A DNA stretch of 9,473 bases. It comes from a virus. Taxonomy: Duplodnaviria > Heunggongvirae > Uroviricota > Caudoviricetes. Each line of letters opens with the position of its first letter. Position 1 is the stretch's first letter. The notes under the pieces were generated by a model. It did not search any database, was not told the origin of the DNA, and saw only the letters and a list, made by a program, of their open reading frames with translations. The stretch spans positions 1 through 9,473 of the IMG/VR virus record IMGVR_UViG_2703718801_000021, one strand, 5' to 3'. The translations under genes and the position numbers were made by a program. This document shows, piece after piece, positions 4,862 to 5,245 of the stretch.

Positions 4862-5245
4862 TTAGAAGGGAATTGAATCGTCGTATTCAGGATTATTTTG
4901 ATGATTGCTACTTTGCTGCTGTTGGCTGTTTCCTGAAGTTGCAAATCCAATCTTTGCATTCAGTAATTCAAGAGTGATTGATTGACCATTTTGCCCCTGA
5001 TAAACATCAACCCTGATGTTTTCTCCGGTAATTTCCACAATGCCACCTTCAACAAGAACACTACGGTAGTAATCCGCTTGCGCTCCCGGCTTGGCAAATA
5101 CAACGGCGCTGTAGTTTGTCCATTCTTTCTTTTTTGTCTGGCGATCGTAATACTGAACGCCAGCACGGATGTTGAATCCGATATTTTCCCCGGCCTGAAA
5201 CTCTCTTGCGGGCTTGTTTAGTCTTACAGTAATCGAATGTGCCAT
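4862..5245 (-). CDS. Short SSB-like protein (127 aa) carrying an SSB-type C-terminal tail (..NPEYDDSIPF)
   Basis: Internal ATG at 5245..5243 overlaps the erf TAA stop (TAATG). The C-terminus has a Gln/Asn/Ser-rich linker (SGNSQQQQSSNHQNN) followed by DDSIPF, which closely matches the bacterial SSB tail DDDIPF. Upstream AAGGAG is present. Confidence 0.6.
   Translation of the reverse strand: MAHSITVRLNKPAREFQAGENIGFNIRAGVQYYDRQTKKKEWTNYSAVVFAKPGAQADYYRSVLVEGGIVEITGENIRVDVYQGQNGQSITLELLNAKIGFATSGNSQQQQSSNHQNNPEYDDSIPF

Follow-up and report, generated by a model that had tools for sequence, protein, structure and literature searches.

What does the small gene lodged between erf and abc2 in the leftward early region of a lambdoid prophage encode, and what would its product do there? 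The question is raised by positions 4862-5245, minus strand, of a 9,473-nucleotide stretch of Caudoviricetes DNA (IMG/VR record IMGVR_UViG_2703718801_000021, positions 1 to 9,473; hereafter the window). Here an open reading frame (ORF) running from 5245 to 4862, stop included, encodes a protein of 127 amino acids (MAHSITVRLNKPAREFQAGENIGFNIRAGVQYYDRQTKKKEWTNYSAVVFAKPGAQADYYRSVLVEGGIVEITGENIRVDVYQGQNGQSITLELLNAKIGFATSGNSQQQQSSNHQNNPEYDDSIPF), with 127 codons followed by a TAA stop at 4862-4864; its translation ends in NNPEYDDSIPF. A preliminary description of the locus had proposed a minimal phage SSB (single-stranded DNA-binding protein) partnering the annealing protein Erf, a proposal supported by the fold, the profile matches, the conservation of the tip and the synteny described below. 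Within the leftward early operon of a lambdoid prophage, the gene stands in the middle of an erf-ssb-abc2 module; it belongs to the SSB-1b lineage, and its product is a divergent SSB of a phage recombination (Rec) module that carries a C-terminal tip of the type found in bacterial SSBs (SSB-Ct). This is a real finding but a largely ordinary one, which would not surprise a specialist. Most probably the protein is a working phage SSB, which would coat the single-stranded DNA (ssDNA) that Abc2-modified RecBCD makes at phage DNA ends, and whose tip would bring in Erf and perhaps partners of host SSB as well.

The architecture of the protein, a basic oligonucleotide/oligosaccharide-binding (OB) core followed by a disordered linker and an acidic tip, is that of SSBs and constitutes their hallmark. 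In a profile search, residues 2-127 matched PHROG 44, 'single strand DNA binding protein' (E = 1.9e-28, 101 bits). The AlphaFold2 model, a single-chain prediction built from an alignment of 57 sequences, shows a confident OB fold over residues 1-105, mostly at predicted local distance difference test (pLDDT) values above 90 (89 residues in all; mean 84). The core, residues 1-103 (4937..5245, minus strand), consists of strands at residues 3-8, 14-18, 21-34 and 39-51, a helix at 55-63, and strands at 69-74, 76-84, 87-95 and 98-103; the order of the strands and the single helix define an OB fold, and the five-stranded barrel, the helix between strands 3 and 4 and the long hairpins place it in the SSB type. 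The OB fold, for which the preliminary description had looked to structure prediction, is thus confidently predicted. Its best neighbours in the PDB are bacterial SSBs and PriB, with SSBs predominating in both fold searches; fold scores were moderate, and OB domains of PolC and anticodon-binding domains of tRNA synthetases were among the other matches. In Foldseek structural alignments, identity to solved SSBs amounts to about 12-19%, and to 16-18% for the E. coli chains.

A comparison with E. coli SSB by hhalign (probability 85%, E = 6e-6) extends the likeness to individual residues. E. coli SSB stacks DNA on W40, W54, F60 and W88, and these four positions are paired with Y32, W42, F50 and Y82 of the window protein, in an alignment of moderate confidence. 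Among the 57 aligned sequences F50 never varies, Y32 and W42 are each replaced in a single sequence (56 of 57 retain them), and position 82 is always Y or F. The OB fold, equivalent stacking aromatics, a disordered linker and a tip of the form [F/Y]DD[D/S]IPF are therefore common to the two proteins. One impression from the first reading did not hold: the body had been described as much shorter than that of host SSB, whereas the OB core measures about 103 residues against about 112 in E. coli SSB, and most of the difference in length comes from the linker, which spans about 15 residues instead of about 55.

Beyond the core, pLDDT falls to a mean of 68 over residues 101-110 and below 50 over residues 108-127, pointing to disorder from residue 108 onwards. 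The Q/N/S-rich flexible linker noted earlier corresponds to residues 104-118 (SGNSQQQQSSNHQNN; 4892..4936, minus strand), a predicted disordered segment that contains no charged residue and separates the basic core (isoelectric point 8.96) from the acidic/hydrophobic tip, residues 119-127, PEYDDSIPF (4865..4891, minus strand), supported by the family consensus and by the end of E. coli SSB. The last seven residues, YDDSIPF, are identical at five of seven positions to FDDDIPF of E. coli SSB (the reference sequence of which was checked and is identical to that of PDB 1EQQ/4MZ9), with Y for F at a sixth. The claim that DDSIPF, encoded at 4865-4882, nearly copies the DDDIPF of host SSB is accordingly correct. 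The resemblance is not fortuitous: by our own estimate from typical residue frequencies, an ending of the form D-D-x-I-P-F would be met by chance in about 3e-7 of proteins.

This tip is a property of the family rather than of one prophage. The family is small: a search with its profile recovered 216 clusters among 1.84 billion representatives, with canonical SSBs out of its reach. In the sample inspected, its members stem from Gammaproteobacteria or from phages of these bacteria, namely prophages of Enterobacterales, phages of Vibrio and Aeromonas, and a Coxiellaceae metagenome-assembled genome. An x-P-[F/Y] ending is present in 84 of 109 full-length family matches; among 117 representatives at 50% identity, 64 have an acidic x-P-F ending and 10 more carry IPF close to, but not at, the C-terminus. 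When counts are combined, an x-P-[F/Y/W] ending is found in 140 of 207 members; the consensus of these tips reads [F/W/Y]-D-D-[D/S]-I-P-F, position -2 being P in all 140 and position -1 being F in 138. The linker in front of the tip is Q/P/A/S/N/G-rich, ranges from 10 to 107 residues across the family (about 50 in the more distant relatives) and is hypervariable in sequence, and the retention of the tip behind so variable a linker indicates selection on the tip itself. Absence of the motif from orthologues, which the preliminary description had named as evidence against its reading, is not the pattern of the family: the tip is conserved among orthologues as well as distant relatives.

Other C-terminal ends also occur in the family. 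A metagenomic/marine subgroup from jgi/ena samples (P0113 at L095:3001-3522, P0091, P0096 and P0104) terminates in NFNQPQR or NFQQPR, and P0113 of this subgroup is linked to Erf. Some members carry one to six residues beyond IPF, as in DDIPFNQGGR, and P0102, P0115 and P0120 have alternative tips as well. Such alternative tips suggest different docking partners.

The close relatives of the window protein are phage proteins, one of which has already been interpreted in the same way. HK97 gp40 is 94% identical (120/127 residues) and is encoded in the same erf-ssb-abc2 Rec module, of the 'HK75-type'; the copies of HK022 (gp40), HK446, mEp043, mEp213 and Stx phages are 97-100% identical, and a near-identical gene is found in HK022, HK446, HK544, HK633, mEp043, mEp213, Sf101 and several Stx-converting phages. 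HK97 gp40 was named 'SSB-1b' on the basis of an AlphaFold 3 model (Zheng/Casjens/Smith et al., Genome Res 2025; PMC12315714), in a study that found the 'HK75-type' module, made up of an anti-RecBCD gene, an SSB gene and an annealase gene, in 27 of 325 panel phages, the SSB sequence type of each phage not being stated (PMC12315714). Both its identity to gp40 and the Rec-module position occupied in the window and in HK97 place the window protein in SSB-1b. Since gp40 is already listed as SSB-1b, the core of our interpretation has been published as a prediction. The C-terminal tip is not discussed in the main text of that paper (PMC12315714), and a literature search for 'DDSIPF' retrieved no paper. 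What is new here is the conservation of the tip across the family, a frameshift that hides it in the HK97 reference record and a C-terminal module common to three annealase families.

The frameshift lies at the 3' end of gene 40 in the HK97 record NC_002167 (L004:1787-1850, corresponding to 4862-4900 of the window), where a C is present that neither the window nor HK022 contains. As a result the reading frame closes with YDDSNPILI* instead of YDDSIPF*, leaving the prototype of SSB-1b without the tip. Whether through an error of sequencing or through a genuine frameshift, the additional C alters the end of the protein.

The position of the gene provides a further line of evidence. Directly upstream lies erf (5245..5850, minus strand), which encodes a 201-residue single-strand annealing protein of the Erf family (PF04404, E = 3.4e-44; PHROG 155, E = 2.1e-57) with 74% identity to P22 Erf; the next gene downstream is abc2 (4542..4838, minus strand), encoding anti-RecBCD protein 2 (PF11043, E = 3.5e-62) with 93% identity to P22 Abc2. 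The coupling to Erf put forward in the preliminary description thus has a real neighbour to refer to, and the TAATG overlap reported there is equally real: CATTA at 5243-5247 of the plus strand reads on the minus strand as the erf stop TAA (5247..5245) and the SSB start ATG (5245..5243), base 5245 being common to both codons. This overlap suggests translational coupling of the two genes. A Shine-Dalgarno sequence, AAGGAG (5261..5256, minus strand), read directly from the sequence, is located 10 nt upstream of the SSB ATG, within the 3' end of erf.

The association with annealases holds well beyond the close relatives. All 80 close loci on viral contigs show the order erf-ssb-abc2 and an intact tip; these loci are near-identical, so they confirm the synteny but add little independent weight. 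As a scan restricted to one genome per species yielded only 10 loci, the context statistics were drawn from 19 diverse loci. In 10 of the 19, the SSB gene is directly preceded on its strand by a member of the ERF family; the preceding gene is AAA_24/Sak4-like in two, and in one it is RecT with a Gp157 gene in between, which brings the loci with an annealase of any type just upstream to 13 of 19. A dUTPase, CsrA, a PolB-type exonuclease or an unknown gene precedes it in the remainder. This SSB lineage hence accompanies three types of annealase that are unrelated to one another, which is what a Rec-module SSB would be expected to do. In a Rahnella inusitata prophage (L094:1408-3405), an insertion sequence with an rve-family transposase is found directly upstream of the SSB gene, in the usual place of erf, and has probably disrupted the recombination module of this prophage.

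Comparison with P22 shows that the SSB gene was not exchanged by itself. At the DNA level, the window is 89% similar to P22 over abc2 (4528-4841) and 79% over the 5' three-quarters of erf (5374-5850), and similarity is lost over 4842-5373, where the SSB gene, together with some 43 codons at the end of erf, stands in place of the 3' end of P22 erf and abc1. Likewise at the protein level, residues 1-135 of the two Erf proteins are 92% identical and their last 43 residues 33%. The last 43 residues of the window Erf are 44% identical to those of a Vibrio-phage Erf that is likewise followed by an SSB gene of this family, as against 24% for P22 Erf and the same Vibrio-phage protein, with the N-terminal comparisons of both being equal. 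The SSB gene has thus been inherited together with the C-terminus of Erf as a mosaic unit.

This C-terminus is a three-helix module of about 57 residues (Erf residues 145-201; 5248..5418, minus strand), predicted by AlphaFold2 with a pLDDT of 90.5. The same type of module, at 37-52% identity, also ends RecT-type annealases of phiV10, Tyrion and Aeromonas phage 4_L372X, as well as AAA_24/Sak4-type annealases of Erwinia phage EhrS_59 and of Leminorella and Serratia prophages (L109:2501-2659, L110:2501-2665, L111:2501-2659, L088:3334-3498 and L105:1725-1889). It has no Pfam family, a search of a 5.8-billion-protein set matched just 14 short fragments, and the Sak4 of HK620 lacks it. Among the few diverse loci, a sample too small for conclusions, the type of tip and the type of Erf C-terminal module show no clean pattern. 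By analogy with the systems described next, the module may be a partner-docking domain, that is, a candidate socket for the SSB tip.

Experimentally studied systems give an idea of how tip and annealase might meet. HK620 offers the nearest precedent: its SSB (HkaK, 'SSB-2') is encoded at the corresponding place, flanked by the annealase gene and abc2, and was formerly called 'abc1' by position; its last six residues, NDYPPF, are required to stimulate the Sak4 annealase in vivo as well as in vitro (Hutinet et al. 2018, PMC5928155). The HK620 protein has 195 residues, a Sak4 partner and experimental tests behind it, whereas the window protein has 127 residues, stands beside Erf and is known from sequence. 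No homology between them was detectable (hhalign probability 0.4%); slot and class of tip are common to both. Compatibility between annealases and SSBs is set by the last seven SSB residues (bioRxiv 10.1101/2020.04.14.041095). In lambda, the three-helix bundle at the C-terminus of Red-beta binds the nine C-terminal residues of SSB (Caldwell et al. 2019, PMC6393309); Erf of the window likewise ends in a confidently predicted three-helix module, although the two C-terminal modules show neither a sequence match nor a significant fold match.

We propose the following sequence of events. Abc2 would reprogram the RecBCD of the host in such a way that the ends of phage DNA undergo resection instead of destruction, an activity known for Abc2 of P22. 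The basic OB core would then coat the exposed ssDNA through stacking aromatics equivalent to those of E. coli SSB, in an oligomeric state that, like the binding itself, we infer. The flexible, uncharged linker would display YDDSIPF as a docking peptide that brings Erf to the coated ssDNA, which would lead to annealing, and Erf may bind this peptide through its C-terminal three-helix module. Since the tip is almost the host sequence, the phage SSB could probably also engage host proteins that dock on SSB.

Several observations weigh against a working SSB that loads Erf through its tip. Pfam returned no family for the protein at E<=1, PF00436 included; the NCBIfam ssb model TIGR00621 scored 18.9 bits (E = 0.0015), below its cut-off of 53.95; and sequence searches of the PDB gave just weak SSB matches (E = 0.061 and 0.54). 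Because these matches are absent or sub-threshold, the SSB assignment rests on PHROGs, hhalign and the predicted fold. His55, a residue important to tetramer stability in E. coli SSB, is not kept, its position being paired by hhalign with Thr43. About one third of family members lack the IPF ending. A PDB fold search with the model of the Erf C-terminal three-helix module gave a best E of 2.4 and did not recover the C-terminal domain of Red-beta, small helical bundles often giving weak results in such searches, and the module also ends annealases that have no adjacent phage SSB gene (phiV10, Tyrion, P22), a distribution that would be compatible with host SSB as the docking site but does not prove it. 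Tip and module are linked by inference, because the fold match is not significant and the module occurs without a neighbouring phage SSB. Finally, the SSBs of the Sf6 and ES18 Rec modules have been described as not studied experimentally, with SSB-1b assigned from predicted structure only (PMC12315714), and a literature search on HK97 gp40 as an SSB found nothing beyond that 2025 Genome Research paper.

The strong resemblance of the tip to that of the host invites a different reading, also raised in the preliminary description, namely that the protein is a decoy for host takeover whose main job would be to rival host SSB in binding partner proteins, sequestering or redirecting nucleases, helicases and replication-restart proteins instead of supporting annealing by Erf. 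The equivalent tip of HK620 acts on the phage's own annealase (PMC5928155), which speaks against such a main role. The five identities in seven positions, together with Y for F, are the sole specific support for competition; that the family consensus equals the bacterial SSB-Ct, and that the operon also holds the host-modulating genes abc2, kil, cIII and ral, would fit it as well. A pure peptide decoy, however, would not need an OB core with stacking aromatics, which are at least as conserved as the tip, and the gene travels with annealases of three families. We therefore regard this as an unlikely main function, albeit one compatible with a role as phage SSB. A dedication to phage DNA replication, in which the tip would recruit the host replisome (the chi subunit, primase, PriA) and the linkage to erf would be incidental, appears rather improbable too. 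SSBs serve replication in general, and a tip so similar to that of the host suits the replisome docking sites known for E. coli SSB; additionally, some distant members are not beside an annealase and have dUTPase or unknown neighbours (Vibrio phage 1.284.A, L090, L093). Nevertheless, the window and all 80 close loci place the gene in the PL recombination module, overlapped with erf and away from replication genes, and an annealase lies just upstream in most of the diverse loci. Moreover, the Rec modules of lambda and P22 encode no SSB (PMC12315714), and phages of this kind presumably rely on host SSB.

The slot itself suggests yet another role, that of a functional analogue of P22 Abc1, an accessory of Abc2 that would help to modify RecBCD and would not be an SSB. 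With erf on one side and abc2 on the other, the gene occupies exactly the abc1 position; at the DNA level it is a mosaic cassette in exchange for abc1, and the GenBank record of HK022 labels it 'likely analog of P22 Abc1'. P22 Abc1 is a basic protein of 94 residues that ends in RLSRLRKK, without a tip of the SSB type, and homology to it was rejected, as BLASTP produced no alignment at E<=100. Since the two proteins are unrelated in sequence, the label of 'Abc1 analog' reflects position only. The predicted SSB-type OB fold, the precedent of HK620, whose 'abc1' in this slot turned out to encode an SSB (PMC5928155), and the fact that the role of Abc1 is itself unknown (PMC9836394) make this reading very improbable. 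Hardly credible, finally, is an OB-fold protein that does not bind ssDNA, such as a protein-binding adaptor or a PriB-like factor, with the tip as its sole SSB-like feature. The sub-threshold Pfam and NCBIfam scores, the moderate fold scores and the presence of PriB, PolC OB domains and tRNA-synthetase anticodon-binding domains among the matches would be accommodated by it. Against it stand the predominance of SSBs in both fold searches, the retention of all four stacking aromatic positions, the basic character of the core and the combination of OB core, disordered linker and acidic tip. A phage SSB serving recombination thus remains the reading that we prefer.

A broader proposal can be formulated, which we consider possible but rather doubtful. 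The tip and the Erf-type three-helix module could form a portable 'plug and socket', through which unrelated annealases would dock on any host or phage SSB ending in [F/W/Y]DDxIPF. A short-linker phage SSB would then offer a private, high-density loading platform, which would also draw host SSB partners off host DNA. Such an arrangement, if true, would explain the free shuffling of Rec-module parts among lambdoid phages. In this regard, a module common to Erf-, RecT- and Sak4-type annealases is a concrete, testable candidate for the shuffling of a 'partner-interaction domain' that recent comparative work left open, and this side observation may be of greater consequence than the gene itself.

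The practical value lies mainly in the naming of the gene. Of 5,426 complete E. coli genomes, 579 carry it, with up to 4 copies per genome, and in the E. coli records listed PGAP labels it 'hypothetical protein', beside an 'ERF family protein'. Other annotations come closer: JGI names some family members SSB, records of Vibrio phages call them 'nucleic acid-binding, OB-fold protein', and in phage HF4s the first 94 codons are annotated 'ssb protein', in an ORF that is cut short and whose 3' part is called a separate small gene. The gene can be named as a phage SSB with good confidence, which would fill a systematic gap in the annotation of E. coli genomes. Additionally, Erf and this SSB make a compact candidate pair for recombineering. 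For other annealases, a cognate SSB and its last six to seven residues can raise editing efficiency, by about 10-fold (HK620 Sak4, PMC5928155) up to more than 100-fold (some RecT-SSB pairs, bioRxiv 10.1101/2020.04.14.041095).

The remainder of the window is that of a typical lambdoid leftward early (PL) region, with the SSB gene in its recombination module. Its map reads int, xis, ea22-like genes, DUF2737, a PHROG-154 gene, abc2, the SSB gene, erf, a PHROG-1723 gene, kil, cIII, a membrane protein gene, ral and cI/cro. The PHROG-154 gene (4241-4534, minus strand) is an additional gene of 97 residues between abc2 and the DUF2737 gene, matching 'replication initiation protein' (PHROG 154, E = 1.7e-32); it is present in HK446 and PhiR12 phages and absent from HK022 and mEp043, in which similarity to the window begins just downstream. 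Just upstream of erf, in the slot of P22 arf, a gene of 56 residues (5861-6031, minus strand) matches PHROG 1723, 'recombinase' (E = 9.6e-33). It is overlapped by another ORF (5940-6125, minus strand), and HK022 and HK97 are annotated with two overlapping small genes at this place.

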